Source of the DNA: Acidobacteriota bacterium | GTDB lineage: Bacteria; Acidobacteriota; UBA6911; RPQK01; JAJDTT01 | Reading direction: 5' to 3' | DNA: 64,000 bases | NCBI GenBank assembly: GCA_965222655.1 | Contig: CBDCUP010000003.1 | Location: 103,932 to 167,931 of the forward strand | Part shown: piece by piece, positions 8,846 through 59,655 of the stretch | Position numbering within the stretch: position 1 is the first letter of the stretch | Layout of the letters: every line of letters starts with the position of its first letter | Position numbers and translations under genes: made by a program | The notes under the pieces: generated by a model | What the model was told of the DNA's origin: nothing | Database searches by the model: none | Seen by the model: the letters and a program-made list of their open reading frames with translations, nothing else

Positions 8846-9034
8846 CTTAGGGCTCGCGCAAGAATAACTTCGCAGAGCTGGCGCTCAGCTTTGCGCCAGA
8901 TTTGGTCGCGAACGATTGAGCGAAACCGCAGGCGTAGCCGGGCCTACGTTGAGGATTTTGTGATTGAGGAGCGGCCGAAGATGGTGTGAAGATGAGATGC
9001 CAGAATGTGAAGTTATTTTTGCGCGAGCCCTTAG
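8846..9034. repeat. MITE-like element with 26-bp terminal inverted repeats
   Basis: Left arm cttagggctcgcgcaagaataacttc (8846-8871) is the reverse complement of right arm gaagttatttttgcgcgagcccttag (9009-9034), with 1 mismatch. Internal hairpins lie at ctggcgc..gcgccag and cgtag-ccgggc-ctacg. The element sits between convergent genes. Confidence 0.5.
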
Positions 9035-12118: not shown

Positions 12119-12222
12119 CGAGATTGTGCTGTTGTCCGCTCTCTCCTGCCTGCGTCGTCCTCGACGGCCGGAACTTGGCCCCATATTGCAGACGATTCAA
12201 GCCGTGCGCGGCTCTGTTGGAT
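12119..12222 (-). repeat. Intergenic repeat family copy A (ATTGTGCTGTTG...GCGGCTCTGTTGG core), carrying a 30-nt insertion
   Basis: Alignable by eye to copies at 16575-16665, 32786-32865 and 59746-59822. The shared blocks are attgtgctgttg, ggaacttg, atattgcagacga, tcaag and gcggctctgttgg. Confidence 0.6.
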
Positions 12223-16574: not shown

Positions 16575-16665
16575 GGAGGTAGATTGTGCTGTTGACCGGT
16601 CGCTCCTCGGAACTTGTGCTCATATTGCAGACGAGTCAAGTCGCTTGCGGCTCTGTTGGACTGCG
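16575..16665 (-). repeat. Intergenic repeat family copy B; contains perfect SD (AAGGAGG 16573-16579) and a GTG-initiated 33-codon ORF (16586..16687) on the + strand
   Basis: Sequence aaggaggtagattGTGctgttgaccggtcgctcctcggaacttg...gcggctctgttgg. The translation VLLTGRSSELVLILQTSQVACGSVGLRWLGTAH resembles the translations of the other copies. Confidence 0.6.
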
Positions 16666-23039: not shown

Positions 23040-24430
23040 CTGAGCCGTGCGGCGCGGCGCGCCGGGCCCCCCCGGAAGGGGGCCAAAGGCCGTCAGCCGA
23101 AGGGTTGAGCCGTCAGAGGTCTGGGACAAGATTCTCTAAATCATTCATCCAAAATGAAAGGAGAATCCAATGGCCCCAGACCTGGAAGACAGAGTACCAC
23201 GAGAGATCCTAGAGGCGTTGATCCAAGAAGGAACGGAGGCCTTTCGCAAGGTGTTGGAGAAGCTCTTGAACTTGGCCATGGGATTGGAACGGTCGGAGTT
23301 TCTGGGAGCCGAGCCCTACGAGAGAACGAGCCAGCGACGGGGCCACGCCAACGGTTACAAGGACAAGAAGATCGCCACGCGTGTGGGAGAGCTCCGACTG
23401 AAGATCCCTCAGGTGCGAGGGCTGTCGTTCTACCCTCAATCGCTGGAGAAGGGCTGCCGCTCGGAAAAGGCGCTGAAGTTGGCCATTGCCGAGATGTATG
23501 TCATGGGCGTCTCCACGCGCAAGGTCACGGAAATCACCGAGCAGCTGTGTGGCACGGAGATCTCCGCCAGCCAGGTCTCACGGGTCGCCTCCCTGCTGGA
23601 TGAGGAGCTGGAGAAGTTCCGTAGCCGGCCGCTGAGCGGTGAGTATCCCTTCGTCTACCTGGACGCCCATTACGAGAAAGTCCGTGTCGATGGACGAGTT
23701 CAGGACCTGGCCATCCTCAAGGCAGTCGGTGTGCAGGCTTCCGGTCACCGTGAGGTCTTGGGTCTGAGCGCCCGGCTGAGCGAGGCGGAGGTCCACTGGA
23801 GAGCGTTTTTTGAGGATCTGGCCGGGCGGGGACTCAAGGGAATGGAGCTCGTCGTCAGTGACGACCACGCGGGACTGAAGGCCGCTCGACGAGCGGTGTT
23901 TCCCGCGGTTCCCTGGCAGCGCTGCCAGTTTCATCTGAGCCAGAATGCTCAGCGCTTTGCCCGTCGGCTCCAAGAGCGGGGCCAGATCGGCCAAGCGATG
24001 CGGGACATCTTCAACAGCCCCACCCTCGAGGATGCCGAAGCCATGCTCAAACGCAAGATCAAGGCGTTCACCGAAACCAACCAGGCACTGGCCCAGTGGA
24101 TGGAAGACAACGTGCGCGAGGGGTTGACGGTCTACGCCTTCCCCCGCAGTCTGCACAAGAAGATCCGGACGATTAACGGCGTGGAGAATCTCAACAAACA
24201 GATCCGGCGCCGCACTCGAGTGGTGGGAATCTTCCCCCATATCGACTCGGCGTTGCGACTGATCTCAGCCGTGCTGGCGGAGATTCACGACGAGTGGCTC
24301 ACGGGCCGCTGCTATCTGAACCTGGAGAGCTGGCAAGAAGAGGAGGCATCCTAGAAGAGCGTTTCCCTAAACCCGAGACCCTCAGATCAGCGAGGGTTCT
24401 CGGTAAGGGGCAGCCCGCGATCGTGGCTCT
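23040..24430 (+). mobile_element. IS256-family insertion sequence (boundaries approximate)
   Basis: Contains a complete IS256/mutator-type transposase gene. Candidate outer inverted match TTTCTGTAATTTC at 22937 / GAAATTACAGAAA at 24627. The ends could not be resolved by eye. Confidence 0.4.
23170..24354 (+). CDS. IS256 family transposase (mutator-type)
   Basis: 394 aa. Characteristic blocks are KVLEKLLNLAMGLERSEFLGAEPYERT..RRGHANGYKDK, YLDAHYEKVR, LVVSDDHAGLK.A...FP....QRCQFH and the ...AEIHDEWLTGRCYL C-terminus. Confidence 0.9.
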   Translation: MAPDLEDRVPREILEALIQEGTEAFRKVLEKLLNLAMGLERSEFLGAEPYERTSQRRGHANGYKDKKIATRVGELRLKIPQVRGLSFYPQSLEKGCRSEKALKLAIAEMYVMGVSTRKVTEITEQLCGTEISASQVSRVASLLDEELEKFRSRPLSGEYPFVYLDAHYEKVRVDGRVQDLAILKAVGVQASGHREVLGLSARLSEAEVHWRAFFEDLAGRGLKGMELVVSDDHAGLKAARRAVFPAVPWQRCQFHLSQNAQRFARRLQERGQIGQAMRDIFNSPTLEDAEAMLKRKIKAFTETNQALAQWMEDNVREGLTVYAFPRSLHKKIRTINGVENLNKQIRRRTRVVGIFPHIDSALRLISAVLAEIHDEWLTGRCYLNLESWQEEEAS

Positions 24431-24821
24431 GAGGGCTTCTGACAGGGCCTCTTTTCTTGGAGAAGGAGGTGGGGGCGCTGAATCGCTCTCTGCGAGTAGT
24501 GCAAGCTGCTCCGGCCTCTCATTTTGATAGATCTGCTGGTTGCCTTAGAGAGATTCACAGCGAGCGGCTCACGGGCCACTGCTTTCTGCACCCGAGAGCC
24601 AAGAGAGGAGGATCCTGTCCCACAACCGACCCTGAAATTACAGAAAAATTGTTGCGCTGCCCAAGAGTAAAACAGTGCCGCGAACGGTGGAATGATCCAG
24701 CGCGGCTGGGGGGACTACGACAGCGACCGAAGTGTCGATCTCTACGCATCTGGCATGAGGGTAAGGCGCTGGGATATCCAGGTCCGGAAGGCGGGTGGAA
24801 GCAGTATGTGGAAGGGGCTCT

Positions 24822-26162
24822 CTATCGACTTTGAGAGGGTGACTTGCTGTTGTTTTCCACAATAGGCTTTCGACTTTTCAGGGCACGTTTCGCGGCCCTT
24901 AGCCGTGCCTGTTCTTTTTCCGAATAGGTCTTGAGCAGCTGGAATTGGCGAAGGTGTTCAACGGCTTTTTCGGCCTGGCCGGTCTGCTGGTAGAGTTGGC
25001 CGAGAAGATAGTGCGCCTGACTGTGGTTCGGCTGCCGACTCAGGGCCTCTAAAAAGTGTTTCTGAGCTTCCTCTAACTGATTGATCTCTTTAAACGTTTG
25101 TCCCAACTCGAGATGAAGCCGAAGGGCAGTCCCGTCAATCCCGAGTCCCTGGCGTAGCCACCCGAGGGCCTCCTGATGTCGACCCACCCGTCTGGCGGCT
25201 TGCCCCAGAGCCGCCAGGACGTCCACATTGTCAGCTTGCAGTTGATGGGCGTGCTCGAGTATCCGTACTGCCTGTTCCGCTCGCCCTGCCTGGGTGTAAG
25301 CTTGCCCCAAATAATAGTAGGCCGACCAGTTCTTCGGCTCCTCAGCGATCACCTCCTTAAAAGCCTTTTCAGCCTCACCAAATCGTAGCTGGCGAGTATG
25401 GAGCAAGCCCAGAAGAAGCCGGGTCGACGCCGAGACAGGCAGAGATGACAGGAGTTTTCCAGCTTTATCGTACTTGCCGAACTTGATCAAGAGATTGACG
25501 CCCTCCATCTTTTCCTCTGGCTTCAAAGTCAGCTTGTTTAACAAAGCCGAGGCCTGTTCATCCAAATCGAGGCGAAGAAGTTGTCTGAGAAGTTGCAGGG
25601 CGGTCGGGCCGTCCAACTGTGCGAAGGGCAAGCGAGTCAGTTGCTCGAAGGATTTCTCCAGGTTCCCCCGCGCTGATTCCAGTCGGGAATGCAAGATAAT
25701 CAAGCGGGGGTTTTTCGGCTCCAATCTCTCAGCGGAAGTCAGGTGTTGTTCGGCGGCCGCGAAGTCTTTCTGCAGAACGGTCTGCTCTGCCAGCGCTTCA
25801 TGTGCCGGCACAAAGCCGGGGTATTTGGAGAGGGCTTGATTCCAGGCCTGCCTGGCCGACTGCGGACGAGACTTGGCCTGTAGCGACTTCCCCCACGTCA
25901 CCAGACTCCAGGCGTGAAGATACCTCAACTCCTCGGAGTCCGGCTTCAATCGAACAGCCCCTTCGTACTCCAACACGGCGTCCGAAATTCGACCCTCCAT
26001 GAAAGCCCGTTTGGCAGCTTCCAGATGACTCAAAATGGCTTTCGTCGAGTCCTGGGCAATCGAGTAGATTTGGAGCAGGAGGAGCAAAGTTAGTAACAAG
26101 GAGCTGAATCGTACAATCCAATTCCAACGCACGTGTTTAGCATATTGGTCGAAGTTGCCCAT
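24822..26162 (-). CDS. TPR-repeat protein with N-terminal membrane anchor/signal
   Basis: Multiple 34-residue TPR-like repeats (W-LG-Y-----A---F---L) and a hydrophobic N-terminus LLLTLLLLLQIY. Confidence 0.65.
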   Translation of the reverse strand: MGNFDQYAKHVRWNWIVRFSSLLLTLLLLLQIYSIAQDSTKAILSHLEAAKRAFMEGRISDAVLEYEGAVRLKPDSEELRYLHAWSLVTWGKSLQAKSRPQSARQAWNQALSKYPGFVPAHEALAEQTVLQKDFAAAEQHLTSAERLEPKNPRLIILHSRLESARGNLEKSFEQLTRLPFAQLDGPTALQLLRQLLRLDLDEQASALLNKLTLKPEEKMEGVNLLIKFGKYDKAGKLLSSLPVSASTRLLLGLLHTRQLRFGEAEKAFKEVIAEEPKNWSAYYYLGQAYTQAGRAEQAVRILEHAHQLQADNVDVLAALGQAARRVGRHQEALGWLRQGLGIDGTALRLHLELGQTFKEINQLEEAQKHFLEALSRQPNHSQAHYLLGQLYQQTGQAEKAVEHLRQFQLLKTYSEKEQARLRAAKRALKSRKPIVENNSKSPSQSR

Positions 26163-26181
26163 GTAGAATTTCCAACATCAC

Positions 26182-26407
26182 CTACGCCGAAGGCGTTATT
26201 GCGGGTAGCCCAGGGTTAGCGATGCGAAGCGAGCTACCCTGGGTCAAGATCGGTCAACAAAATGCCTTACCCCAACGGGGTTACTGCCGACCGGAAACGT
26301 GTTGGCAATAACGCTTTCAGCGTAGAAAAGACGGGACGACTTAAACCCAGGGTAGCTCGCTTCGCATCGCCAACCCTGGGCTACCCGCAATAACGCCTTT
26401 GGCGTAG
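26182..26407. repeat. Large nested inverted-repeat element (two 63-bp arms, 2 mismatches, 100-bp spacer)
   Basis: Arm A 26182-26244 is ctacgccgaaggcgttattgcgggtagcccagggttagcgatgcgaagcgagctaccctgggt. Arm B 26345-26407 is its reverse complement, acccagggtagctcgcttcgcatcgccaaccctgggctacccgcaataacgcctttggcgtag. Each arm is itself an imperfect hairpin (gcccagggttagc / gctaccctgggt). The spacer contains a partial third copy, ggcaataacgctttcagcgtag. Confidence 0.75.
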
Positions 26408-26454
26408 ATCGAGGCCTATGGGAAAAAGCCGACGCACGAGACCGCGGGCCTCTG

Positions 26455-28176
26455 TTAGCGAATCGTTCTAAGATCTTTTCCCTCTTCCAGAAGAACACGG
26501 CGGTTAGCCGCAACATCCTTGAATTCCTGACGCTGGCCCGAGGGCCAGATAACCTCCAGACAGTCTACGATTGATCGATCCCCCAGCCCGAAATGAAACA
26601 TTCGTTGACTGTCAGACAAATAACTTGATCCTGCGTGCAGCTCTTGAGAGTGACTGGTTTCTCCCAACGTTGCTGTGACTCGCGCTCCGATGCCGTCTCG
26701 ATTCGAAGCGAGGCCTCTCAGATAAACCTGGAGGAAATTGGATCTGCCCGGAGCGTCATTGCGCAGCAAGTCGACGCGATCGTCCAGGTTGACGACTACG
26801 ATATCCAGGTCGCCATCGCGATCCCAGTCCAACCAGGCTGCGCCTCGTGACGACTTGATGATCCCCAGCCCCTCCCCCAGCGACTCCCCTACTTCAACAA
26901 ACCTGCCGTCCCCTCGGTTCTGGAACAACTGATTCGGTTGTCGATACTCAGTGCCCAGCTTGAAGCGATCGACCTCGGGATAGATGTGACCGTTTGCGAC
27001 GAAGATATCGGGTCGAAAATCGTTGTTGAAATCGGCCAGAAGCGCCCCGAAGCCCAAATAGCGAAATGTGACTTGGGCAACCTGCGCTGAGAACGTCGCG
27101 TCCGCAAAGTATGTTTTTCTATTCTGGTACAGCACATGGTAATCGTTCGAAAAGTTGGTCGAGTAGAGATCCAGCAAGCCATCGCCGTCGTAGTCCCCGA
27201 CGTCGACGCCCATGTTGGCCTGTTCCCGGCCGTCCTGATTGTAGGCCAGACCCATCAGGAGCGAGATCTCGGTAAAGGTGCCGTCTCCGTTGTTTCGCCA
27301 GAGGAAGTTCGGATTGCTGTCATTGGCGACAAACACATCGAGGTCTCCGTCGAGATCGACATCGGTCCAAAGCGGCTGAAAGCCGTAAGACCTTTTACTC
27401 GCCGAAACACCTGACTGATCCGAGACGTCTTCGAATGTCCCGTCGCCGTTGTTACGGAAAAGCCGGTCCTGTGCGCCCGGTAGACCTCTGGGACCGCAGG
27501 CAACGGCCACGCCGGCGTAGGAGCAGTACTGTGGATCACCGGATGATTTCTCGAAGTCGAACTCCAGATAGTTGGCCAGGTAAAGATCCAGATGTCCGTC
27601 CTTGTCGTAATCGCCGAAGGCTGCACCGGTGCTCCACCCAGGGTCGGCAACCGACCCGGTCACTCCAACCTCGGAGAATGTTCCGCTTCCCTGGTTACGG
27701 TAGAGGAAATTGGGACCGTAGTTTGTCACGTAGAGATCGGTGTCTCCGTCGTTGTCGTAGTCTGCGGTGACGCAACCCATGCCCCAGGCGCTGTCCCGGA
27801 GTCCGGCTGGAGCGGTCGCGTCAGAGAATGTTCCGTCGCGGTTGTTTCGGTAGAGTCGGTCACTGGGCCCCTTCTTCCTGTTCCAGGAGTGACGATCGGT
27901 GCCGTTTGCGAAAAACAGATCGGGCCATCCGTCTCCATCGAAGTCCAGCACGCAAACACCACCCGTCATAGTTTCCACCAGGAAGTCCTTTTCTGGCGTC
28001 CCCGCACTGACGATCAGGTCCACACCGGCGCTCTGAGTGACATCTTTGAAGTGCCAATAGTGCTGGGCAATTCCGAGATGGCTGTTGGTCGTAAAGAGTT
28101 GTAAGAGAAGGATTCCCGCAGTGTACGAGCGCCCCCTGGATCTCGTCGCAGGCGGATAGTTCCTTTGACACGACAC
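26455..28176 (-). CDS. ASPIC/UnbV-domain FG-GAP repeat protein (CRTAC1-like), secreted
   Basis: Repeated FG-GAP/calcium-binding D-x-D-x-D-G motifs (DFDGDGWPDLF, DYDNDGDTDLY, DYDKDGHLDLY, DYDGDGLLDLY, DWDRDGDLDIV) followed by a UnbV-ASPIC C-terminal region. It is paralogous to 44260..46116. Confidence 0.8.
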   Translation of the reverse strand: MSCQRNYPPATRSRGRSYTAGILLLQLFTTNSHLGIAQHYWHFKDVTQSAGVDLIVSAGTPEKDFLVETMTGGVCVLDFDGDGWPDLFFANGTDRHSWNRKKGPSDRLYRNNRDGTFSDATAPAGLRDSAWGMGCVTADYDNDGDTDLYVTNYGPNFLYRNQGSGTFSEVGVTGSVADPGWSTGAAFGDYDKDGHLDLYLANYLEFDFEKSSGDPQYCSYAGVAVACGPRGLPGAQDRLFRNNGDGTFEDVSDQSGVSASKRSYGFQPLWTDVDLDGDLDVFVANDSNPNFLWRNNGDGTFTEISLLMGLAYNQDGREQANMGVDVGDYDGDGLLDLYSTNFSNDYHVLYQNRKTYFADATFSAQVAQVTFRYLGFGALLADFNNDFRPDIFVANGHIYPEVDRFKLGTEYRQPNQLFQNRGDGRFVEVGESLGEGLGIIKSSRGAAWLDWDRDGDLDIVVVNLDDRVDLLRNDAPGRSNFLQVYLRGLASNRDGIGARVTATLGETSHSQELHAGSSYLSDSQRMFHFGLGDRSIVDCLEVIWPSGQRQEFKDVAANRRVLLEEGKDLRTIR

Positions 28177-32711: not shown

Positions 32712-32785
32712 AAAACTCCAAGGGACAAGGTACAAACAAACAAACAAATTCCAAACGATGCGGCAGCAATACGCAGCGAAATTCA

Positions 32786-32865
32786 ACAGAGCCGCGAACG
32801 ACTTGACCTGTCGGCGAAGCGAGGCCAAGTTCCGAGGAGAGAGCTGGACAACAGCACAATCTCCC
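32786..32865 (+). repeat. Intergenic repeat family copy C
   Basis: Sequence aacagagccgcgaacgacttgacctgtcggcgaagcgaggccaagttccgaggagagagctggacaacagcacaatct aligns to copy D at 59746-59822 and to the reverse complements of copies A and B. Confidence 0.6.
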
Positions 32866-36965: not shown

Positions 36966-39254
36966 ATGAGTCCAACGTCCCCAGCCTTCACCTGTTTACC
37001 TCTGATCTTGATGGTGCTCGTTCCACTACAAGAGCAGAGGGGAAGGCCCAGGTCCGCGCCGCCTGAGACCCACGAGCAAGACTCCGTCGTTGGTGGCAGA
37101 AACGTACACTGGTCCTTTCAGCCAATCGAATCCCCGGCAGTGCCCGCAGCAGCGAACCGCTCCTGGGTCAGAAATCCAATCGATGCGTTTGTTCTAAGTA
37201 GACTGGAGAGCGAGAGCATTTCACCTTCTCCCGAAGCCGACAAGAACACCTTGATACGACGGGTCAGTCTGGACCTGGTCGGCTTCCCTCCGTCGCCAGA
37301 CCAGGTCAGCAGCTTCCTGAGCGATGAGCGTCCGGATGCCTACGAACGTTTGGTTGACGGGCTTCTCTCCTCGCCCCACTACGGGGAAAGGTGGGCCCTA
37401 TACTGGTTGGATCTAGCACGCTATGCCGACAGTGACGGCTACGAGGGTGACCGCGTACGACCTCACGCCTGGCGTTATCGTGAGTGGGTCATCAAAGCCC
37501 TCAATGAGGATATGCCATTCGACCAGTTCACTATCGAGCAAATCGCCGGTGACCTTCTTCCGGAGGCCACCATCAAACAGAAAGTAGCAACCGGATTTCA
37601 CCGCAATACATTGACCAACCGGGAAGGCGGCGTGGACGTCGAGCAGTTCCGCTTTGAGCAATTGGTCGACCGCAACAGAACGGTGGGGACCGTGTGGCTG
37701 GGACTCACGGTAGAGTGCGCCCAGTGCCATGACCACAAATATGACCCAATCACACAGAAGGACTACTATCGGCTGCTTGCCTTCTTCAACTCCGACGAGG
37801 AAGTCAATATCGACGCTCCTCTTGCCGGAGAGATGGGGTCCTACACTAGAGGACGACCGGAATATGACGCAAAGCGTCAGAAACTTCTGCAGGAATACGG
37901 CCTGTTTGAACTGCAGAGGCCCTGGGAATTGAAGATGCTTCAGGCCTCGGCCAACCCGGGAAAGTGGCCCGTTTGGGACGATGCCTATGTGATGTTCCAG
38001 TTGTTGCTGGATAACGGCGAAACCATTCTAGGCAACGATCCAGACCGGCGGACCCGCAAGGAGCAATTGGCACTCACGGCCCACTTCGTCGGCAACTACG
38101 GCCGCGTCATCACCAAGGAACGTTCCGAAGAACTCAGGCTCAAAGAACTCAGGAAGAAGCTGGACAATCTCAGCCGGGCTTTTCCGGCCTTGAGTGAGGC
38201 GCAAACGATTGCGGCAAGCGCGCATCCCCGCAAGTCCTACATCCACATCCGAGGGGACTATCGCAACAAGGGGATAGAAGTTCAGCCGGCAACCCCGGGT
38301 TTTCTCCATCCCATGCCGCAGGATTCAAACGGGTCACGGCTCACACTGGCGCGTTGGATAGCTGCCCCGAACAATCCTGTGACGCCCAGGGTGACCGTCA
38401 ATCGACTCTGGCAGGAGCTGCTCGGACGCGGCCTTGTGAGGACCTCGGAGGACTTTGGAAGCCGCGGCGATCGGCCTTCCCACCCGCAACTCCTCGACTG
38501 GCTGGCGAACGACTTTGTGAGTCGCGGTTGGAGTCTGAAGAAGGTGATGAGGCGGATCGTGACGTCTGCGACCTACCGACAATCATCCGCCCGAGGGCCA
38601 GAAATGGAATCCCGCGATCCAGACAACGTCCTGCTGAGCCGGCAGAATCGACTCCGACTCCCGGCCGAGCTGATTCGCGATTCGTCTCTGGCCGTGAGTG
38701 GCTTGCTCTACCCGGCCATCGGGGGAAGGAGCGTGCGGCCCCCCCAACCGGAGGCTGTGACGGGGTTGATGCACTTGAACTTCACATGGGAGGAAAGCCA
38801 GGGCCGGGACCGCTACCGTCGGGGGCTATACGTCCATCGTCAGCGCTCGATGCCCTACCCCCTTCTACAGAATTTCGATGCGCCGGAGTTCACCGTGACG
38901 CTTTGTCGCCGGGAGCGGTCCAACACGCCGCTGCAGGCGCTTAATCTGTTGAACGATCCGGTGTTTTTCGAAGCCGCGCAGGCGCTGGCTGTACGCATCC
39001 TGAGGGATGTGTCCGGGAGCTTTGACGACCGATTGGACCATGCCTTCCAGCTATGCCTTTCCCGCCCTCCCTATCCCAGCGAGCAGCAGCGCATGTCACA
39101 ATATTTTGCGCGCAAACTGAAGCTTTTGGACGAGGGTTCTGCCGAGTCTTTGTTCCCCATCGATCTGGAAGGTGAGAGCAGGATCGAGGCTGCGGCCTGG
39201 GTAGGACTGAGCAGCATCCTGCTCAACCTGGATGAGTTCATCACCAGAGAATAG
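36966..39254 (+). CDS. DUF1549/DUF1553 (PSCyt2/PSD1) domain protein, secreted
   Basis: DUF1549 block is W.RNPIDAF...L...G; DUF1553 blocks are WL.LARYADSDGYE.D..RPHAWRYR.WVI.A, TIEQIAGDLLP, REGGVD.EQFRFE and CAQCHDHKYDP. It is paralogous to 55602..58214. Confidence 0.85.
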   Translation: MSPTSPAFTCLPLILMVLVPLQEQRGRPRSAPPETHEQDSVVGGRNVHWSFQPIESPAVPAAANRSWVRNPIDAFVLSRLESESISPSPEADKNTLIRRVSLDLVGFPPSPDQVSSFLSDERPDAYERLVDGLLSSPHYGERWALYWLDLARYADSDGYEGDRVRPHAWRYREWVIKALNEDMPFDQFTIEQIAGDLLPEATIKQKVATGFHRNTLTNREGGVDVEQFRFEQLVDRNRTVGTVWLGLTVECAQCHDHKYDPITQKDYYRLLAFFNSDEEVNIDAPLAGEMGSYTRGRPEYDAKRQKLLQEYGLFELQRPWELKMLQASANPGKWPVWDDAYVMFQLLLDNGETILGNDPDRRTRKEQLALTAHFVGNYGRVITKERSEELRLKELRKKLDNLSRAFPALSEAQTIAASAHPRKSYIHIRGDYRNKGIEVQPATPGFLHPMPQDSNGSRLTLARWIAAPNNPVTPRVTVNRLWQELLGRGLVRTSEDFGSRGDRPSHPQLLDWLANDFVSRGWSLKKVMRRIVTSATYRQSSARGPEMESRDPDNVLLSRQNRLRLPAELIRDSSLAVSGLLYPAIGGRSVRPPQPEAVTGLMHLNFTWEESQGRDRYRRGLYVHRQRSMPYPLLQNFDAPEFTVTLCRRERSNTPLQALNLLNDPVFFEAAQALAVRILRDVSGSFDDRLDHAFQLCLSRPPYPSEQQRMSQYFARKLKLLDEGSAESLFPIDLEGESRIEAAAWVGLSSILLNLDEFITRE

Positions 39255-39256
39255 CT

Positions 39257-40693
39257 ATGGAATTCGACGAGCTCAGACGGATCCTAACCCGCCGAGACTT
39301 CTTGGGAAGTTGCGCCGCCGGCATCGAAACGATTGCGCTGGCCCAACTGTTGGCCACCGAAGGACGGGCGGAGGGGAACGAACCACCGATCGATAATCCC
39401 TTGGCTCCCAGACCCCCTCATTTCGAACCGACCGCAAAGAACCTGATCGTCCTGTTCATGGCGGGAGCCCCGAGTCAGATTGATTTGTTCGATCCCAAAC
39501 CCGAACTTCAGAAATGGCATGGCCAGTCGCTGCCCCCGTCGATGACCGAGGGGATGAAGCTGGCCTTCATTGAGCCCAGCGCCAAGGTCTTTGCCAGTTC
39601 TCGAACCTTCAAACCCTACGGGGAAAGCGGCATAGAGTTTTCCGATTACCTGCCCCACCTGGCAACCTGTGCCGACGATATCTGCCTGATTCGGTCGATG
39701 TACACCGAAGCCTTCAACCACCATCCAGGCCAACTGTTGCTGATGACGGGCAGCATGCAGTTTGGCCGCCCCACCCTGGGGTCCTGGGTGTCCTATGGTC
39801 TGGGCAGTGAGAGCCAGGACCTTCCCGGGTTCGTGGTTCTGAGCTCGGGAAAGGGAACCAGTGGTGGAACGACCAACTGGTCCTCCGGGTTTCTGCCGTC
39901 GGTGTACCAGGGGGTGCCATTCCGGGATCAGGGAGACCCGATTCTCTATCTGTCCAACCCTGGGGGGATGAGCCAGGAAATGCAGCGGGAGCGGCTGGAC
40001 GCCCTGCGGGACTTGAACCAACAGCATTATCTGAGAACCCGCGATCGTGAAATCGCCTCGCGCATTGCTTCCTACGAGCTGGCCTTTCGAATGCAGGCGG
40101 CTGCCCCACAGTTGATCGATTTCTCGGATGAGCCCAAACACGTCCTCGACAGCTACGGTGTCAACGATGAAACAACCCGGCCTTTCGCTGTCAATTGTCT
40201 GTTGGCCCGCAGAATGGTCGAGCAGGGGGTCCGGTGCATCCTGCTGGCACACTCCAGCTGGGACGACCACGAGCAGATCGACAAGAGGTTGAAAAAGAAC
40301 TGCGCCATTACGGATCAGCCCGCAGCAGCTCTGTTGAAGGACTTAAAGGAGCGAGGCCTGTTGGACAGCACGCTCGTCGTGTGGGGAGGTGAGTTCGGCC
40401 GCACTCCCCTGGCTCAGATCATCCGGGAAAATGAGGGTGCGGGGCGGGATCACCACCCCGACTGCTTTACCATGTGGATGGCAGGAGGCGGGGTCCGCGG
40501 CGGTCAGGTCATCGGGAAAACCGATGAGTTCGGTTTGAGGATCGTCCAGGACAAGGTACACGTCCATGATCTGCAAGCCACGATTCTGCACCTTCTAGGC
40601 CTGGACCATACCCGTTTAACATACCGCCACATGGGCCGCGATTTCCGCCTGACCGATGTGGCTGGCGAGGTGGTGAAAAAAGTTCTCGCTTGA
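39257..40693 (+). CDS. DUF1501 domain protein (sulfatase/alkaline-phosphatase-superfamily-like), Tat-secreted
   Basis: Tat motif LTRRDFLGSCAAG. The DUF1501 blocks are FMAGAPSQ.DLFDPKPEL, HHPGQ, VVWGGEFGRTP and GRDHHP.CF. It starts 2 nt after the DUF1553 stop, so translation is coupled. It is paralogous to 58219..59655. Confidence 0.85.
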   Translation: MEFDELRRILTRRDFLGSCAAGIETIALAQLLATEGRAEGNEPPIDNPLAPRPPHFEPTAKNLIVLFMAGAPSQIDLFDPKPELQKWHGQSLPPSMTEGMKLAFIEPSAKVFASSRTFKPYGESGIEFSDYLPHLATCADDICLIRSMYTEAFNHHPGQLLLMTGSMQFGRPTLGSWVSYGLGSESQDLPGFVVLSSGKGTSGGTTNWSSGFLPSVYQGVPFRDQGDPILYLSNPGGMSQEMQRERLDALRDLNQQHYLRTRDREIASRIASYELAFRMQAAAPQLIDFSDEPKHVLDSYGVNDETTRPFAVNCLLARRMVEQGVRCILLAHSSWDDHEQIDKRLKKNCAITDQPAAALLKDLKERGLLDSTLVVWGGEFGRTPLAQIIRENEGAGRDHHPDCFTMWMAGGGVRGGQVIGKTDEFGLRIVQDKVHVHDLQATILHLLGLDHTRLTYRHMGRDFRLTDVAGEVVKKVLA

Positions 40694-40775
40694 CGTGGCG
40701 GTGGTCTCCAGGCCGCCGTATTCTTTGTTCCGAGCCTATGGCTCGACGCACGGCGGCCTGGAGACCACCGCCACG
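40694..40775. repeat. Long hairpin repeat (25-bp perfect stem cgtggcggtggtctccaggccgccg / cggcggcctggagaccaccgccacg, 32-nt loop), exactly filling the gap between convergent genes
   Basis: Direct reading. It begins 1 nt after the DUF1501 stop and ends 8 nt before the stop of the minus-strand sialidase gene. A second, more eroded copy lies at 44139-44201. Confidence 0.7.
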
Positions 40776-40782
40776 ACCCCGT

Positions 40783-42072
40783 TCAGGGGGCCTTTTTCTG
40801 CAAGCTATCAGCCCCGTCAGTCAACCATTCCAGGTCGAAGCGAGCGACTGAAACCTTGGCGTCCGGTCCGGGGTAGCCAGCACCCGAAGTCCAGACCAGG
40901 TCCTTGGTGTAAATGCAGAGAATGCTCATGTCAGGCGCAACCGCAAGGTTCGAGTAGCCGGCCGATCCCGGGTAGAGGACCTTCGATACCGGCCAGGTTT
41001 TGCCCTCGTCGTAGCTGAGCCTGATCGTCATCTGGGATCTCTCAGTCGTGCTGGCCGGGTTGGACACTAGGATACGATTCTTGTTGAAACTCTCCTGATC
41101 GGTGAAGCGCACCACGCTGCCCTGACAGGAAGGCTCGGGGAGCGTCTCGTCGTATTTCACCTCCGACCAGGTTTCCCCACCGTCCTTGCTCCAGGCATAG
41201 CCGCGGCGATGGCTCTGATCAATAACTCGAGATGATGGCCACCTTTGCTTAGCAGTACGGCTCCTCAGAGTCATGTACAAGGTACCGTCAACGGTTTCTA
41301 CGGCCTCACACTCATCGGATTTGTCCTTGGTCAGAATTTCGCCTCGCTTCCAGGTTTCTCCGTGATCGTCGCTGAAGAAGGCATAGGACCACTGGACATT
41401 CTGGGGGCGCCACTGCCTCCAGATCACGGGTCGCATAAGGGAGTAGACCATCTCGATCACGTCCTTTAGTTGGCCCTCGGCGCCCTCTGCTAATTCGACG
41501 GGTCCCGGAGTTTCATCTCCCCAGGCCGGTATCAGAAGCCGTCCACTCTTCAGCTGGATGCCGTGCCCCGGACCTGACCCAAGGAAACTCCAGACGGGAT
41601 CCTTGACGTCGTCGGTGATTTCGACCGGCTCCGACCAGGTCTCACCATCGTCTGTGCTTTTCTTCACGAAGACCTGGCGGTTGTTCTTGCAGTAGAGGAG
41701 CACAATGGTTCCGGTCTGGTGATCCACCACCGGACATTCATTGCCAATCGTGTGTTTCCCGTCATCGGCCACGACCTGCATCTCCTCCCAGGTCTGGCCG
41801 CTATCGAAACTGCGTCTGAGCACAATGTCGGTATCGTCCCAATCATGGCCGTCGTTCTTCCTGGCTTCGGCAAAGGCGAGGATCGTCCCCTTGGTCGAAA
41901 CCGCTAGCGCAGGAATCCGGTAGAGAAAGTACCCTCCCTCTCCAACTTTAAACAAAGCCGTTTCAACCGGCGACCCCGCGCTTTCCTGGCTTTCTGGATC
42001 CGACATTGGCGGTTCCGAAGCCGTGCAGCCTAAAAGGAAGGCAGTAAGAAGTATCGGGATGATGTGTCTCAT
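40783..42072 (-). CDS. Exo-alpha-sialidase (GH33), lipoprotein
   Basis: Lipobox MRHIIPILLTAFLLGC. YRIP motif (YFLYRIPALAVS). Asp-boxes are SFDSGQTW, STDDGETWS, SDDHGETWK and SKDGGETWS. It is about 55-60% identical by eye to 12..1286. Confidence 0.85.
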   Translation of the reverse strand: MRHIIPILLTAFLLGCTASEPPMSDPESQESAGSPVETALFKVGEGGYFLYRIPALAVSTKGTILAFAEARKNDGHDWDDTDIVLRRSFDSGQTWEEMQVVADDGKHTIGNECPVVDHQTGTIVLLYCKNNRQVFVKKSTDDGETWSEPVEITDDVKDPVWSFLGSGPGHGIQLKSGRLLIPAWGDETPGPVELAEGAEGQLKDVIEMVYSLMRPVIWRQWRPQNVQWSYAFFSDDHGETWKRGEILTKDKSDECEAVETVDGTLYMTLRSRTAKQRWPSSRVIDQSHRRGYAWSKDGGETWSEVKYDETLPEPSCQGSVVRFTDQESFNKNRILVSNPASTTERSQMTIRLSYDEGKTWPVSKVLYPGSAGYSNLAVAPDMSILCIYTKDLVWTSGAGYPGPDAKVSVARFDLEWLTDGADSLQKKAP

Positions 42073-42331
42073 GACTCAGCCTCCTGTGATTGTTTCTGGA
42101 AGTGGTTCTGGACATCGCTTGAAGGATCCTTCCAAGTAGTAGGCTCTTCTGGGGCCTAAGTCAACAGGCCGGACGACGATACGGCCCTTATTTCGAGAGG
42201 AGACTGATCCGTTCGAACGAGGGGGGATACAAATCTTGCCTCGTCGGCGCAGTGGGAGTACATTGGTCAATCATTATCAGGCAGTCTTTCTGTCAAGTCT
42301 TTTTCTACCCAACCAAAGGAGGGAACCAATC

Positions 42332-44089
42332 ATGTCTTCCAACCGAAGGAATTTCTTGAAGACCGTGGCTGCGGCAGGCGGAACCGCTGCTGCTGCTGGC
42401 ACACTTTCCGCATCCACAGGCCCAGGGGCTGTCTCCAGCGCCGAGTCTCACGGCAGTAAAGAAAAACCCCCGTTTCGTTTGATCTGGGAGGGGGAGTGGA
42501 ACGATGTGCCCTGCTCCGACTATCCACTGACCCCGGAAAGATGGGCCAAAGAAGCCCTGGCGCCCCTGGCCAACACCCACGTGGACGCTTTGGCCTACAA
42601 CGTCTGCAGCAGCGACGGCTATGTCGCCCAGCTGGAGCACGGGGAATTGCTGCTCGACAACGTCGAGCAGTTCGAAGATGCCTGGTATTGGAGATACCGG
42701 GAAAACACCAAGGGGCTGATCAAGGCAGGCGCCAACCCTCCCGACATGGCCGTCAAGTATGGACAGAAATACGGGATGAAGATCTTCGCGGTCATCCGGA
42801 TGAACGATCCCCACGACCAGGTCTACGCCTTCAGGCACGAGGTAAGTAATTTCAAGCTAAACCACCCTGAGTATTTGCTGGGAAACCCGCACTGGGAAGT
42901 AGGTGACAAGGCTCAAAAGGAATACGCGCCGGATACCATGGAATCCTTCACCTGGGGCCTGTTTGACTACTCTCACAAGGCGGTGCGGGATCACAAGCTG
43001 GCCATCATCAATGAGTTCGCCACTCGCTGGGATAACGATGGAGTCATGCTGGATTTCGAGCGGGATCCCATGTACTTCTGGCCTCCCCAGGGAGGTGGGG
43101 CTAAGCCCGAGAACCAGGAGAAGATGACCGATCTGATCCGATCAATCAGAGCGACGCTGGACAAAGTTCAGGCTCAACGCGGGAAAAAGCAGTTACTGAT
43201 GGTGCGGGGAGTTGCCAACATCCAGTTGTGTCAGGAGCGTGGATTGGATATCCCCACCTGGGTCAAGGAAGGCCTGGTGCAAGTAATCATTCCAGGAGCG
43301 GGCTACGCACCCTTCACGTTGAACCTGAAGCCCTGGCTGGAGCTGGTGGAAGGTAAGGAGTGTTGGATCTATCCTTCGAACAACCATTGGAAACATACCG
43401 AGGTCACCAGGGCCTGGGCGCTCCAGATGCTCGACGAAGGAGCCCATGGGCTCTACCTCTTCAACTGGGGCCATCTGATATTCGGTTACAGGGCGGCCGA
43501 GTCCCCCTTGGTTCCCGTCGGTTCCAACTGGCGCGGGAGCGCCTATTCGGTCTGGTACGATGAGGCCCCTCCCGACTTCTACACCACTCTGCACGAGATC
43601 GGAGATATTCGAGCCGTGCAGTTCAAGAACAAGCGGTACGTCCTGGATTCGATCCCGCATGAGGTGATGAAGGATCGGCTGCGGGGCGGCAAGATAGGTA
43701 GCCGGCTGTATCGAGGAATCGACGATGTCGTGCTACCCGTGGAGCTCTCAGTCGGCCGGCATGAGGTCCCATTCCGGATCTCTGACGCTCTGCAATCGGC
43801 TCACGAGTACGGATTCGATCCCAAGGCCACACTCACGATGATGATCGTGAATCACACTCATCCTGATCGCTTCACGGTAACCTTGAACGATACGCTTCTG
43901 AACGATGACACCCGCTCGAGCCGGGATGTCTACATCATGAACAACTTCTCCAGGGTGCAGTATCCGATTCCGTTAGAGGCGCTGAATCATGGACAGAACA
44001 CGCTGAAGCTCCACATGACCAAGACCAATCCGCAGATGAGGCCCAACCCGGTGCTGCAGAACGTGGATATCTCGATCGAGTACGTCTGA
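42332..44089 (+). CDS. Tat-secreted TIM-barrel-like protein of an uncharacterised glycoside-hydrolase-like family (paralog)
   Basis: Tat motif MSSNRRNFLKTVAAAGG. Start at ATG 42332, preceded by AAGGAGGG. It is about 70% identical to 59929..61677 (PPFRLIWEGEWNDVPCSDYPLTPE.WA, IRMND.HDQ, AIINEFATRWDNDGVMLDF.RDPM.FWPPQGG, LYLFNWGHL). Confidence 0.6.
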   Translation: MSSNRRNFLKTVAAAGGTAAAAGTLSASTGPGAVSSAESHGSKEKPPFRLIWEGEWNDVPCSDYPLTPERWAKEALAPLANTHVDALAYNVCSSDGYVAQLEHGELLLDNVEQFEDAWYWRYRENTKGLIKAGANPPDMAVKYGQKYGMKIFAVIRMNDPHDQVYAFRHEVSNFKLNHPEYLLGNPHWEVGDKAQKEYAPDTMESFTWGLFDYSHKAVRDHKLAIINEFATRWDNDGVMLDFERDPMYFWPPQGGGAKPENQEKMTDLIRSIRATLDKVQAQRGKKQLLMVRGVANIQLCQERGLDIPTWVKEGLVQVIIPGAGYAPFTLNLKPWLELVEGKECWIYPSNNHWKHTEVTRAWALQMLDEGAHGLYLFNWGHLIFGYRAAESPLVPVGSNWRGSAYSVWYDEAPPDFYTTLHEIGDIRAVQFKNKRYVLDSIPHEVMKDRLRGGKIGSRLYRGIDDVVLPVELSVGRHEVPFRISDALQSAHEYGFDPKATLTMMIVNHTHPDRFTVTLNDTLLNDDTRSSRDVYIMNNFSRVQYPIPLEALNHGQNTLKLHMTKTNPQMRPNPVLQNVDISIEYV

Positions 44090-44138
44090 TTTCCAAGACG
44101 CCACCGCGGCCGTGATTGAGGTTGGCGGACGTAGCTTT

Positions 44139-44201
44139 GGTCTCCAGGCCGAAGTCTTCTGCTCTCGAGCCTTCGGCTCGAAGCACGGCGGCCTGGAGAC
44201 C
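44139..44201. repeat. Second copy of the GGTCTCCAGGCCG...CGGCCTGGAGACC hairpin repeat, between convergent genes
   Basis: tttggtctccaggccgaagtcttctgctctcgagccttcggctcgaagcacggcggcctggagaccaccgctacgac aligns with 40705-40778. The 5' arm is partly eroded. Confidence 0.65.
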
Positions 44202-44259
44202 ACCGCTACGACTTCCTCTGAAGTCTCGGCATGAATGATCCAGGGGCGTTGAAGCATGT

Positions 44260-46116
44260 TTACCCGTCTCTCTTGGAATCCTGTCCTGTGGTCGTGACGA
44301 CCGGCTCGGGCTCGCCTTCCTGGATCGTGATTATGCGATTGACAGGGAGGTCGGCGACGGTAGAAGTCTTACCGCTGGCCCATCGGATCTCGACTTTTTC
44401 CACCTGTTCGGCCGAACCCAGACCGAAGTGTAGCCGCAGATCCGAGTGGGAGGCATAGCTGCCTCCACTAATCACGTCCCCTCTCTGCCGCTTACCGTCG
44501 GCAGTCAAGAACACGGTGGTTCCGATCGCATCGCTCGGGCTCTTCTCAGTCCCGATCAGGCGCAGGAGAATCCAATTGTTGCTGCTGCCGGCTCGGTTGA
44601 TCAGGATCTTTGGAGAACCGTCGACGCAGTTCATGACCACATCGACCGCTCCATCATTGTTCAAATCGCCGAAGGCGGCCCCCCGCGCCGGTACGACCAC
44701 TGCGAGGCCACTTCCGGCCAGTGGCGGGACTCCCGTGAAGCGCTTTCCGGCGAGATTTTGAAAGAGCAAGGGGCGCTGCGCCCAGCTTGTACCCCAGTTG
44801 TACTGATCGACTCCGGGGTAGGTATGACCGTTGGCAACGAACAGATCCTTGAAGCCGTCGTTGTCGAAATCTAGAAATCCGGTTCCCCAGCCCAGGAACG
44901 GGATTGTTGGTCGAGCCAGACCATACCGAAAGGTGGCGTCCACAAAGAATCCCTCCCCCTCATTTCGGTACAGTGTGTTGTAGTCGTCGGAAAAATTGGT
45001 GATGTAAAAATCGACGCCCCCGTCGTTATCGAAATCCCCCACGGCGATCCCCATACCAGCCTGCTCGGCCCCCGACTCGCTCAGCGCAAAGCCTGATCGA
45101 TAGCTGATGTCCTGAAAGGCTCCGTCACCCTTGTTTCGGTAGAGGTAGTTGGGGGTAGAGTCATTGGCGACGACCAAATCAATCCAACCGTCGTCGTCGA
45201 CGTCAACCCAGGCTGCGCCGAAGCCATAATATCCTTTGGGATCGTCCACTCCGGCTTCGACCGCCACCTCTTTGAAGGTATGATCTCCGTTATTCACAAA
45301 CAGGAAATCCCGAGTCCCCTCGAGGCCCCGCGGACCACACATCACCGGCTTCCCCCGAAACTGGCAGAAGCTGTCGTCGATCGAATTGACCTCGGGATCG
45401 GGGAGACTGGCAGGGTCGAATTTCAGATAGCCGCAAACGAAAAGATCGAGGTGACCGTCGCGGTTGAAGTCGCCGAACGAGGCTGCGGTCGACCATTTGC
45501 CCAGGGCAACACCGGCCTTCTCGGCCACATCGGTGAAGGTCCCGTCACCGTCATTCTGATAGAGCCGGTTCTTGCCGAAGTTGGTCACATAGAGATCGGG
45601 CCAGCCGTCGTTGTTGTAATCACCAACAGTTGCACCGAAACCCCATCTTTCGTTGGCCACCTTGGCCTCTGAGGTCACCTCCTTGAAGGTGCCATCCTGA
45701 TTGTTCCGAAAAAGAGCCGATCTGGGTGAATCCTCTTTGCCCTGGAGGGCCTCATAGGTGGAGCCACTGACCAGATAGATATCGAGCCATCCGTCCCGGT
45801 CGTAGTCGATCAGAGCGACTCCACCTGATGGGACCTCGAGAATATAGCTCTTGGACTTGGACCCGGAGCGGTGAATGAATCGATCTACTCCGCTTTGGGA
45901 GGTGACATCGGCAAAGATCTCCGGTGCGTCGTCGACAAAGCCGCCGGCCGTGATCGGGCGCATCTCTTTGTCGAAGACAGGAGGGTGGGCTTCACCAGAG
46001 ACGACGCCCGACTTCTGCTGAGTCTGACCTGAAAGTTGCTGGAGCCAAGGCCAGGCGACACACGGGACAAGGGCGAGTACCCATATCCACTGAAATGACT
46101 TCGATCTCATGAACAC
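44260..46116 (-). CDS. ASPIC/UnbV-domain FG-GAP repeat protein, secreted (paralog of 26455..28176)
   Basis: Motifs DYDRDGWLDIY, DYNNDGWPDLY, DFNRDGHLDLF, DVDDDGWIDLV, DFDNDGGVDFY and DLNNDGAVDVV, with a UnbV-ASPIC C-terminus. Confidence 0.8.
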   Translation of the reverse strand: MFMRSKSFQWIWVLALVPCVAWPWLQQLSGQTQQKSGVVSGEAHPPVFDKEMRPITAGGFVDDAPEIFADVTSQSGVDRFIHRSGSKSKSYILEVPSGGVALIDYDRDGWLDIYLVSGSTYEALQGKEDSPRSALFRNNQDGTFKEVTSEAKVANERWGFGATVGDYNNDGWPDLYVTNFGKNRLYQNDGDGTFTDVAEKAGVALGKWSTAASFGDFNRDGHLDLFVCGYLKFDPASLPDPEVNSIDDSFCQFRGKPVMCGPRGLEGTRDFLFVNNGDHTFKEVAVEAGVDDPKGYYGFGAAWVDVDDDGWIDLVVANDSTPNYLYRNKGDGAFQDISYRSGFALSESGAEQAGMGIAVGDFDNDGGVDFYITNFSDDYNTLYRNEGEGFFVDATFRYGLARPTIPFLGWGTGFLDFDNDGFKDLFVANGHTYPGVDQYNWGTSWAQRPLLFQNLAGKRFTGVPPLAGSGLAVVVPARGAAFGDLNNDGAVDVVMNCVDGSPKILINRAGSSNNWILLRLIGTEKSPSDAIGTTVFLTADGKRQRGDVISGGSYASHSDLRLHFGLGSAEQVEKVEIRWASGKTSTVADLPVNRIITIQEGEPEPVVTTTGQDSKRDG

Positions 46117-58214: not shown

Positions 58215-58218
58215 AAAG

Positions 58219-59655
58219 ATGGATCTGAGAACATTCAAACTCTCTCAAACCCGTCGTGATTTTCTCAGCAGATGTGCCGGCGGAATCGGGACTGTTGCCC
58301 TGGCGCATCTGATGGCGTTGGAGGGGCGTACCGCTACGAGTCGGTTGACCGGGACCAATCCTCTGGCTCCCAAGTCTCCTCACTTCGCCCCCACCGCCAA
58401 GAACATGATCTTCCTTTTCATGGCGGGTGCTCCCAGCCAGCTCGACCTGTTCGATCCCAAACCGGAGCTAGTGAAGTGGCACGGAAAGCCGCTTCCCGGC
58501 TCCATGACGAAGGATCTAAAACTGGCATTCATCAAACCGTCGGCAAAGATCTTGGCGAGCGCTCGGCAGTTCAAGAAATATGGTGAGTGCGGTATGGAGT
58601 TTTCCGACTACCTGCCTCACACGGCGTCCAAGGCCGATGACATCTGTCTGATTCGTTCCATGCACACCGAGGCATTCAACCACCATCCGGGTCAGATGCT
58701 GTTGACGAGCGGTACGACCCAATTCGGGCGACCCACCGTGGGGTCCTGGGCGGTGTACGGACTGGGCAGCGAAAACCAGGACCTGCCCGGCTTCGTCGTC
58801 CTCAGCTCGGGTCGAGGGACCAGCGGAGGCTCCAACAATTGGTCGAGCGGTTTTCTCCCCTCACTGTACCAGGGAGTCCCTTTTCGAAGCAAAGGAGCCC
58901 CGATCCTCTATTTGCCCAACCCCCCGGGAGTCGGTCCGGAGATGCAGCGGGCCCGGCTGGACGCCCTTCGCGACCTCAACCAGGACGAGTATCTGGAAAC
59001 GGGAGATCGCGAGATCCTCTCTCGAATCGCATCCTACGAACTGGCCTATCGGATGCAGATGTCGGCCCCAGATTTGCTCGATTTCTCCGACGAACCCAAA
59101 CATATTCTGGACCTCTACGGTGTCAACCAAGAGCCTACCGGGCCCTACGCAACCAATTGTTTGCTGGCGAGGCGGATGGTCGAACGGGGGGTTCGCTTCG
59201 TCATGCTGGCCCATGCAAGCTGGGACGATCACGATAAGATCGACGAAGGCCTGAAGAAGAACTGTGAGATCACCGATCAGCCCATAGCTGCGCTCTTGCA
59301 GGACCTGAAGCAGCGCGGGCTATTAGACACCACCTTGGTTGTCTGGGGCGGCGAATTCGGCCGCACGCCCCTGTCCCAGGCTGGCCGTGCCGACCAGGCG
59401 CCGGGACGCGATCACCATCCAGATTGTTTCAGCATGTGGTTAGCCGGCGGAGGAATCCGAGGCGGCCAGACCATCGGCAAAACGGACGAACTCGGTTTGA
59501 ACGTGGTTGAGGACAAGATCCACATTCACGACCTACAGGCCACTATCCTCAAGTGTCTGGGCTTCGACCACACAAAGCTGACCTACCACCACATGGGACG
59601 AGACTTTCGCCTCACAGATGTCGGAGGGAAGGTCGTTGAAAAACTGCTGGTGTAG
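58219..59655 (+). CDS. DUF1501 domain protein (sulfatase-like), Tat-secreted
   Basis: Tat motif QTRRDFLSRCAGG. Roughly 75% identical to 39257..40693. It starts 4 nt after the DUF1553 stop. Confidence 0.85.
   Translation: MDLRTFKLSQTRRDFLSRCAGGIGTVALAHLMALEGRTATSRLTGTNPLAPKSPHFAPTAKNMIFLFMAGAPSQLDLFDPKPELVKWHGKPLPGSMTKDLKLAFIKPSAKILASARQFKKYGECGMEFSDYLPHTASKADDICLIRSMHTEAFNHHPGQMLLTSGTTQFGRPTVGSWAVYGLGSENQDLPGFVVLSSGRGTSGGSNNWSSGFLPSLYQGVPFRSKGAPILYLPNPPGVGPEMQRARLDALRDLNQDEYLETGDREILSRIASYELAYRMQMSAPDLLDFSDEPKHILDLYGVNQEPTGPYATNCLLARRMVERGVRFVMLAHASWDDHDKIDEGLKKNCEITDQPIAALLQDLKQRGLLDTTLVVWGGEFGRTPLSQAGRADQAPGRDHHPDCFSMWLAGGGIRGGQTIGKTDELGLNVVEDKIHIHDLQATILKCLGFDHTKLTYHHMGRDFRLTDVGGKVVEKLLV

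Follow-up and report, generated by a model that had tools for sequence, protein, structure and literature searches.

The question raised by this locus is what kind of element occupies the spacer between two minus-strand genes in the 64,000-nt stretch of Acidobacteriota DNA analysed here (the window). A preliminary description had left three options for a 226-bp structure with inverted arms: a terminator-insulator, a large structured RNA within a 5′ UTR, or a foldback-type MITE.

Anatomy of the element between the ASPIC and TPR genes

ORF coordinates and domain matches agreed with the described placement, with both genes on the minus strand and the element starting 47 nt past the ASPIC stop and ending 19 nt ahead of the TPR ATG. 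A repeat search reproduced the two inverted 63-nt arms (97% complementary, 2 mismatches, 100-nt spacer) and located the third copy of the terminus that had been noticed in the spacer. The window holds one copy of the element, with the following features.

26182-26407, no strand assigned: entire element (226 bp), a member of a dispersed family of repeats 215-245 bp long (repeat search, BLAST)
26182-26244, plus: left arm (arm-sense on plus), with terminal hairpin, 12-nt linker and large hairpin
26184-26196, plus: terminal hairpin T1, ACGCC-GAA-GGCGT, holding the CCGAAGG mini-hairpin motif (PMC13037366)
26205-26208, plus: GTAG tag, unpaired, directly 5′ of the large hairpin
26209-26243, plus: large hairpin H1, CCCAGGGT(T)AGC ... 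GCTACCCTGGG, 11-bp stem with one bulge
26224-26230, plus: GCGAAGC mini-hairpin capping the large hairpin, present in 107 of 109 arms (PMC13037366)
26269-26281, plus: spacer hairpin S1, ACCCC-AAC-GGGGT; 3 copies have T-A in place of C-G, a compensatory change
26282-26310, minus: spacer hairpin S2, stem TACTGCC / GGCAATA, better paired on the minus strand
26305-26325, minus: internal third terminus unit T3, arm-sense CTACGCTGAAAGCGTTATTGC (repeat search)
26345-26407, minus: right arm (arm-sense on minus; repeat search)
26455-28176, minus: ORF with FG-GAP and UnbV_ASPIC domains, upstream neighbour, outside the element
24822-26162, minus: ORF for a TPR protein, downstream neighbour, outside the element

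Each arm opens on the outside with Y-TAC; then come a hairpin of 5 bp closed over GAA and a linker of 12 nt whose last four bases are GTAG. Innermost lies an imperfect palindrome of 34 nt (CCCAGGGTTGC ... GCTACCCTGGG), with GCGAAGC in its loop; it forms the large hairpin, whose 11-bp stem is broken by one bulge or mismatch and whose loop measures 12 nt. The GTAG tag is unpaired in the ssDNA fold and invariant within this lineage, the base preceding it (arm position 23) is variable, and it stands immediately before CCCAGGG in 103 of 135 arms; in distant relatives the tag reads ATAG, AAAG or TCAG, so that its universal part is AG only. T3 (21-22 nt) matches the left terminus in inverted orientation (90%) and the right terminus in direct orientation (86%), and the preference of S2 for the minus strand reflects 19 cells that read as A-C on the plus strand and as G-T wobbles on the minus strand. 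With two facing end modules around a conserved, structured spacer that holds a third terminal unit, the element is laid out like a head-to-head REP doublet (REPIN/BIME-like).

The arm core and terminus gave no match in dinucleotide-preserving shuffles of the window. Folded as RNA, the 251-nt region containing the element reached -169.6 kcal/mol, against -86.6 +/- 4.5 kcal/mol for shuffles (z = -18.6), and a single 63-nt arm, each arm being folded separately as ssDNA, formed two local hairpins (z about -3.2), bearing out the description of a hairpin inside each arm. The element is a real feature, far above chance expectation. A role of its end as Shine-Dalgarno sequence of the TPR gene was dropped, since the 18 nt from AGG is too long.

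Copies of the element and covariation of its hairpins

The arm-core 20-mer CAGGGTAGCTCGCTTCGCAT occurred at no fewer than 81 loci across five Acidobacteriota MAGs, one of which, of 8.6 Mb, accounted for at least 19 of them, and a second 20-mer, GCGAAGCGAGCTACCCTGGG, at no fewer than 120 metagenome loci. BLAST of the 226 bp against the fetched loci (numbered below with the prefix L), as had been suggested for finding further copies, recovered about 40 full-length copies (215-245 bp, 80-90% identical, asymmetric spacer included), besides many truncated or single-arm ones. Identity between copies averaged 82% within a MAG (maximum 97%) and 80% between MAGs, and none were identical; the family therefore appears old and without a recent burst, and at about 82% identity within a genome the sequences give no evidence of current activity. 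A literature search with the arm sequence returned unrelated primer matches only. The element is one of many copies in a group of Acidobacteriota and more distant relatives, and not a locus-specific regulator.

Thirty-four full copies were aligned for covariation. A model of local hairpins (terminal, large, two spacer hairpins and internal terminus) exceeded 500 of 500 shuffles in percentage of paired cells, in cells changed on both sides (32 versus 14.4) and in covariation score, whereas the long arm-to-arm foldback was broken at the terminal-hairpin columns in 8 of the 34 copies and had its covariation score equalled by 45 of 500 shuffles, and so was not clearly above chance. The two terminal hairpins switch between G-C and A-T independently of each other; T3 covaries within its own hairpin (ACGCT/AGCGT to ACACT/AGTGT); and left and right arms co-vary at arm positions 23 and 40. 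Since covariation occurs both within hairpins and between arms, local hairpins and arm similarity are both maintained. The suggested search for covariation in homologous copies thus returned compensatory changes, and it is by compensatory change that the hairpins are kept.

The third stem pair of T1 (arm positions 5/13) was GC in 66, AT in 32, GT in 10 and AC in 1 of 109 arms, and the T1 loop was GAA in 90 of 109; conservation of the arms is partly inflated, as exact 20-mers of arm sequence served to retrieve the loci. In a set of 207 distinct arms, at least 8 Watson-Crick variants of the terminal stem occur, and in metagenome relatives this stem reads ACTCC/GGAGT, ACCGC/GCGGT, ACTCT/AGAGT or ACCCC/GGGGT with the plan unchanged. 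Among these wider relatives the GAA loop was kept in 118 of 157 arms, and the linker was 12 nt long in 131 of 135 while its sequence differed. Both GCGAAGC and CCGAAGG are documented, extremely stable DNA mini-hairpins, and a GNA triloop closed by C-G is a stable motif specific to DNA (PMC13037366, PMC3201870).

The junction in relatives and nested insertions

Orthologous loci were found through homologues of the TPR protein. The element is present at the ASPIC-TPR junction in L088/L089 (90% protein identity) and in L062, where an IS481-family element is inserted in its spacer. In L082/L083 (77% identity), on the 4.24-Mb contig of CBDCMS, a MAG with many copies at other sites, the junction is empty, with 70 nt between the genes. 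The empty junction reads ...GGTCGAT CTACGC TGAGG TTGGAAATTCTACATGG and the window, on its minus strand, ...CCTCGAT [CTACGCC ... GGCGTAG] GTGATG TTGGAAATTCTACATGG, so that the window has 221-222 extra nt and no duplicated flank. The ASPIC-TPR spacer of the next relative, L084-L087, is unrelated in sequence and 307 nt long, so that the difference fits insertion and precise loss alike. Multi-copy, dispersed, and filled or empty at an orthologous site, the element makes the foldback-type MITE the option that was essentially right. A virtual empty-site BLAST over all fetched DNA for further filled and empty pairs recovered the window locus alone.

The near-identity of window and L088 (about 99%, against 90% for the genes) was considered as a sign of purifying selection and rejected: the stretch of high identity spans about 800 nt, from about 26500 to 25700, reaching into the TPR gene, and so marks a recombination tract and not constraint on the element. 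At about 2455-2480 of L088/L089, in the TPR-side arm, the 7-mer GGGTAGC occurs in tandem triplicate (GCGGGTAGCGGGTAGCGGGTAGCCC), a slippage product, since the arm normally has two GGGTAGC units.

Several other features of the neighbourhood were recorded. A recurrent 50-75-nt motif, GGAACTT ... CAGACGA ... GCGGCTCTGTTGGA plus its reverse complement, occurs in the window at 12169-12221, 16608-16660, 32768-32842 and 59728-59802, and in L084 at 2300-2450, where one copy fills the ASPIC-TPR spacer; it is similar to promoters of the ECF-sigma type (GGAAC, spacer, CGTC). Between the TPR and TonB-dependent-receptor-like genes, at 23170-24354 on the plus strand, there is a transposase gene of the IS256 family (NF033543, 348 bits; Pfam Transposase_mut), a partial repeat of whose 3′ end lies at 24280-24322 and 24550-24592; the gene looks like a lineage-specific IS insertion, as the TPR and TonB-like genes are about 550-630 nt apart in L082 and L084. 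Paralogous blocks at 66-80% identity (37107-43668 versus 56064-61256, and 151-857 versus 40919-41658) point to duplicated gene clusters, and the FG-GAP repeat units of two ASPIC-like genes cross-match (26992-27946 and 44650-45822).

In all arm pairs 1.5-2.3 kb apart, the spacer proved to be interrupted by either a group II intron or an IS481-family element.

IS481-family element in the repeat spacer: L062 3809-5437; L058 2448-4075; L035 5379-7006
IS481-family element in the repeat spacer: L039 7487-8000; L067 6376-7691; L032; L002
Group II intron (reverse transcriptase/maturase, TIGR04416, 367 bits): L052 3395-5501, directly after spacer hairpin S1, ACCCCAAAGGG^

The 1.63-kb IS encodes a 404-aa protein with HTH, LZ_Tnp_IS481 and rve_3 domains, whose best NCBIfam match is IS481 at 208.8 bits (cut-off 224). 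It was considered as parent of the MITE from the loci with arms 1.5-1.9 kb apart (L062, L058, L035, L067) and rejected: it is an insertion, because it has its own 48-nt TIRs (TGTAGCTCCCGATTCATAGGTAAC...), its own 6-bp TSD (AACCGG, in L062), and varied positions and orientations in the spacer. Copies at L035 1-817 and L163 2-232 have no element arm in the visible adjoining DNA, and as sampling was biased towards the repeat, a target preference of this IS for the spacer is a candidate only. The 3′ end of the group II intron lies at the identical element position in L024 and L117 (8-139), with other flanks and in a second MAG; one position used in two copies suggests retrohoming into a stem-loop.

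In other MAGs, several repeat families together make up, as a mosaic, the intergenic regions that contain the element. Copies are often nested, in one orientation or the other, in the centre of a unit of about 140 nt, AAGTTTCAG ... CCCATTCGAGAAAGAAACTT ... GTCTCAGATACGCCCATCC ... AAGTTTCAG.

Mosaics with the ~140-nt repeat: L045 5600-6400; L020 1495-1600; L005 3478-3593 (uninterrupted unit); L050 20-430

The recurrent flanks seen there are halves of this repeat and not duplications; their reading as conserved N-termini or RBS/start regions was rejected for want of long ORFs. Two copies of another, unrelated family of REP-like doublets (arms ...GGTGGTCTCCAGGCCGCCGT...) occupy 40694-40775 and 44130-44210 of the window; this family adjoins copies of the studied element in L045, L068, L015 and L048. 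The window also holds an inverted repeat at 8846-9034 with 29-nt arms (90% complementary) 131 nt apart, CTTAGGGCTCGCGCAAGAATAACTTCGCA / TGTGAAGTTATTTTTGCGCGAGCCCTTAG.

Mobilisation, ends and comparison with known systems

A Y1/RAYT gene flanked by these arms was not found in the window and 201 loci (about 1.3 Mb), searched with an HUH...Y regular expression and with phmmer, using as queries an E. coli RAYT and published Acidobacteria TIRYT sequences; the window and genome loci gave no HUH/Y1 ORF. The sole match, in the metagenome locus L206, was a Y1_Tnp + DnaA_C gene 2 kb from a related doublet. It was rejected as the cognate transposase, since the repeats on either side of it (GGGGTCAG / GGGGTCAGGTCTTCAAA...) are its own and unrelated to the arms; they match the GGGGWSAS motif known from published TIRYTs, and three assemblies end inside them. 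The homologues of this gene are Planctomycete-like, and none lie on target MAG contigs. The related doublet on this Planctomycete-like metagenome contig (L206/L210) has the terminal hairpin ACTCC GAA GGAGT and stands beside dnd-type genes (PAPS_reduct/DndC-like, an AAA/SMC-like ATPase gene and DndE).

The reading we favour, which we judge about evenly poised between right and wrong, is that of an old, dispersed, non-autonomous foldback family of about 220 bp, REPIN-like, moved as ssDNA by an HUH enzyme acting in trans, with a tolerated insertion at this locus. On this reading the transposase, an HUH tyrosine enzyme (RAYT/IS200-like), would be encoded at another place in the genome and would move the element, or would once have moved it, in trans in the form of folded single-stranded DNA; between ASPIC and TPR the element would be a tolerated insertion into a spacer once 70 nt long, and any effect on read-through or mRNA stability would be a by-product. 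We infer the ssDNA/HUH mechanism from the structure and from the absent flanking duplication outside the ends. The element is filed here as functioning like a REPIN; membership is not proven, because the arm is compound, a third terminal unit is present, GTAG is lost in distant relatives and the link to a transposase is missing.

The ends themselves bear on the main rival of this REPIN-like reading, an IS630/Tc1-mariner DDE-type MITE that inserts at TA within YTAR and duplicates the TA, its hairpins being incidental or otherwise used, the true element then measuring 220-222 bp and starting at CGCCGAAGGCG. Direct repeats of 2-9 bp outside the ends (offsets 0-11, 37 doublets) were at the level of shuffled pairs. 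Thus the target-site duplication that was to be checked for was not found at 3 bp or more in the 37 doublets or at the filled/empty pair, while a palindromic TA is possible; among the observations that the preliminary description had set against its element, this lack of a flanking duplication was found, whereas uniqueness and unrelated sequence at the orthologous site were not, the element being multi-copy and the site filled in two relatives. The ends read C-TA-C ... G-TA-G, with T and A near-invariant at arm positions 2-3 at both ends (110 and 108 of 111 arms), outside which the base is variable (position 1: C 83, T 19, G 6, A 3 in 111 arms) and does not co-vary between ends (columns 1-245: CG 14, UG 10, other 10), so that a palindromic TA duplication in a YTAR target of IS630/Tc1 type is possible and would look the same as an extension of the arm. 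The empty site in L082, GATC-TA-CGCTGAGG, has a single TA at the junction, and as a single site it is compatible with both TA-duplication and HUH models. Stowaway-type MITEs have long TIRs and fold back, as this element does. Against such a MITE, a transposase gene of the IS630 family or another, bounded by these ends, was not found in the 1.3 Mb; all terminus-like units outside arms are the internal T3 unit, which itself keeps CTAC; and a DDE enzyme that binds dsDNA does not explain why the triloops stay GAA, why the wobbles are strand-specific and why three separate small hairpins show compensatory changes in many variants. We consider this reading unlikely, and on anatomy the REP doublet (REPIN-like) is the better fit than a classical DDE MITE.

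Distinctly less probable still is an RNA-level cis element of the host between ASPIC and TPR (terminator, attenuator, insulator, mRNA-stabilising hairpin or structured leader), for which speak the very stable transcript fold, the position on the coding strand between stop and start, the known stabilisation of upstream mRNA and attenuation of read-through by REP/BIME elements (PMC3733652), and the element halves being 94-96% identical between window and L062 against 82-89% for the flanking genes, a difference that partly reflects how L062 was found. The higher identity to L088 adds nothing here, given its recombination tract, and the nearest empty-site relative has a 70-nt spacer only. A scan of 25900-26700 detected no T-run intrinsic terminator at the element, the sole terminator-like site being at 26512-26496, inside the ASPIC gene, and Rfam 15 gave no match at gathering score in the whole window and none at E<=1 in 26000-26600. 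In a crude survey, 35 of 40 copies overlapped no ORF of at least 120 aa, and the 31 copies with two callable neighbours were near random in context (9 convergent, 14 tandem, 8 divergent) with both spacer orientations; being intergenic in all gene orientations, the family resembles tolerated selfish DNA and not a dedicated terminator or leader. The G-T wobbles (10, versus 1 A-C) fall on the arm-sense strand of both arms, that is on opposite genomic strands, and therefore a single transcript cannot explain the hairpins of both. Neither a terminator-insulator nor a structured 5′-UTR RNA is thus supported as primary function. We rate a shade lower again a host-used ssDNA signal or protein-binding site (ssi-like priming, recombination, or nucleoid or gyrase binding like BIMEs) that spread by usefulness. 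Both arm hairpins carry DNA mini-hairpin motifs, which are reported at replication and transcription origins, with CCGAAGG in the ssiA priming signal (PMC13037366); the architecture is kept in very divergent relatives, and the family is old and retained. Set against these are the absence of measurable positional regularity or strand bias, the frequent decayed, truncated and interrupted copies, the presence/absence polymorphism at the orthologous site, and the lack of any protein linked to the element.

A bolder, doubtful proposal, rated on a par with the DDE-type MITE, is an undescribed cross-phylum superfamily (Acidobacteriota and at least one Planctomycete-like contig) whose fixed two-hairpin CCGAAGG/GCGAAGC ends would be read as ssDNA by an enzyme that is not a canonical RAYT (a new HUH-type partner or a host ssDNA process); the elements would also serve as preferred landing sites for the group II intron and the IS481-family element.

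If the REPIN-like reading holds, it extends REPIN-like ssDNA repeats to poorly studied, mostly uncultured Acidobacteriota, and the two-hairpin end, with its rich natural covariation, could be used to seek the cognate transposase. In practice the family accounts for contig breaks in these MAGs, its insertion polymorphisms between genes can serve strain typing, and it is a case of nested mobile DNA, a group II intron and an IS481 element having landed within the repeat. The reading of the ASPIC and TPR genes themselves is unchanged.

Compared with known systems, the element shares with IS630/Tc1-mariner MITEs (Stowaway-like, Correia) its size, long TIRs, foldback and the border TA in YTAR, and differs from them in compensatory hairpin evolution and DNA mini-hairpin motifs, no parent IS having been found. 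With IS200/IS605-derived MITEs (PATEs) and IS608 it shares hairpin ends apparently acting on one DNA strand, a conserved boundary tetranucleotide (YTAC; TTAC in IS608), no flanking duplication seen outside the ends as drawn, and a terminal hairpin in two direct same-strand copies (T2, T3). Whereas the element's ends are long inverted repeats of one another, those of IS200/IS605 are not; the element's YTAC also overlaps the hairpin stem, and no tnpA/tnpB relative was seen. TIRYT genes are described in Acidobacteria (Koribacter, Terriglobus, Acidobacterium, Granulicella) with long, at times doubly palindromic flanking TIRs (PMC3733652), and the element resembles the TIRtrons/TIRYT families (PMC3733652, section 16) in its long inverted repeats with self-complementary tracts, moderately abundant dimers and Acidobacteria hosts; TIRtron TIRs, however, are defined by a flanking Y1 transposase gene, a link missing for the element, and the sole TIRYT-like gene met (L206) has a different repeat, of GGGGWSAS type.

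The closest description is that of REP doublets (REPINs, Bertels & Rainey 2011, PMC3116915; BIMEs; Di Nocera et al. 2013, PMC3733652). GTAG REPs are palindromes of about 20-40 nt with stems of 5-13 bp and loops of 2-20 nt (PMC3733652, Table 1), dispersed extragenically, with singlets as doublet remnants and head-to-head dimers that have tags outside and conserved 20-100-bp spacers with small stem-loops (PMC3733652), and the stem, loop, doublet and spacer sizes of the element lie within the published ranges (PMC3733652). Unlike REP doublets, the element has as arm a 63-nt two-hairpin compound at a fixed 12-nt spacing instead of a single 20-40-nt REP, carries a third terminal unit in its spacer, does not keep GTAG in distant relatives, had no RAYT flanked by its units in the window and 201 loci, and lives in Acidobacteriota, where only TIR-flanked RAYT-like genes (TIRYTs) are described. 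Like them, it has imperfect palindromes with an unpaired GTAG at the foot, arranged as an inverted pair with outward tags around a conserved spacer that is no longer than about 100 bp and forms small stem-loops; extragenic copies numbering in the tens or above, with singlets, decayed copies and co-varying arms (positions 23 and 40); no flanking duplication seen beyond the ends as drawn; and an apparently old family with mostly vertical inheritance. The element is of an ordinary, already known kind, with some unusual details of structure, and the repeat family is new.
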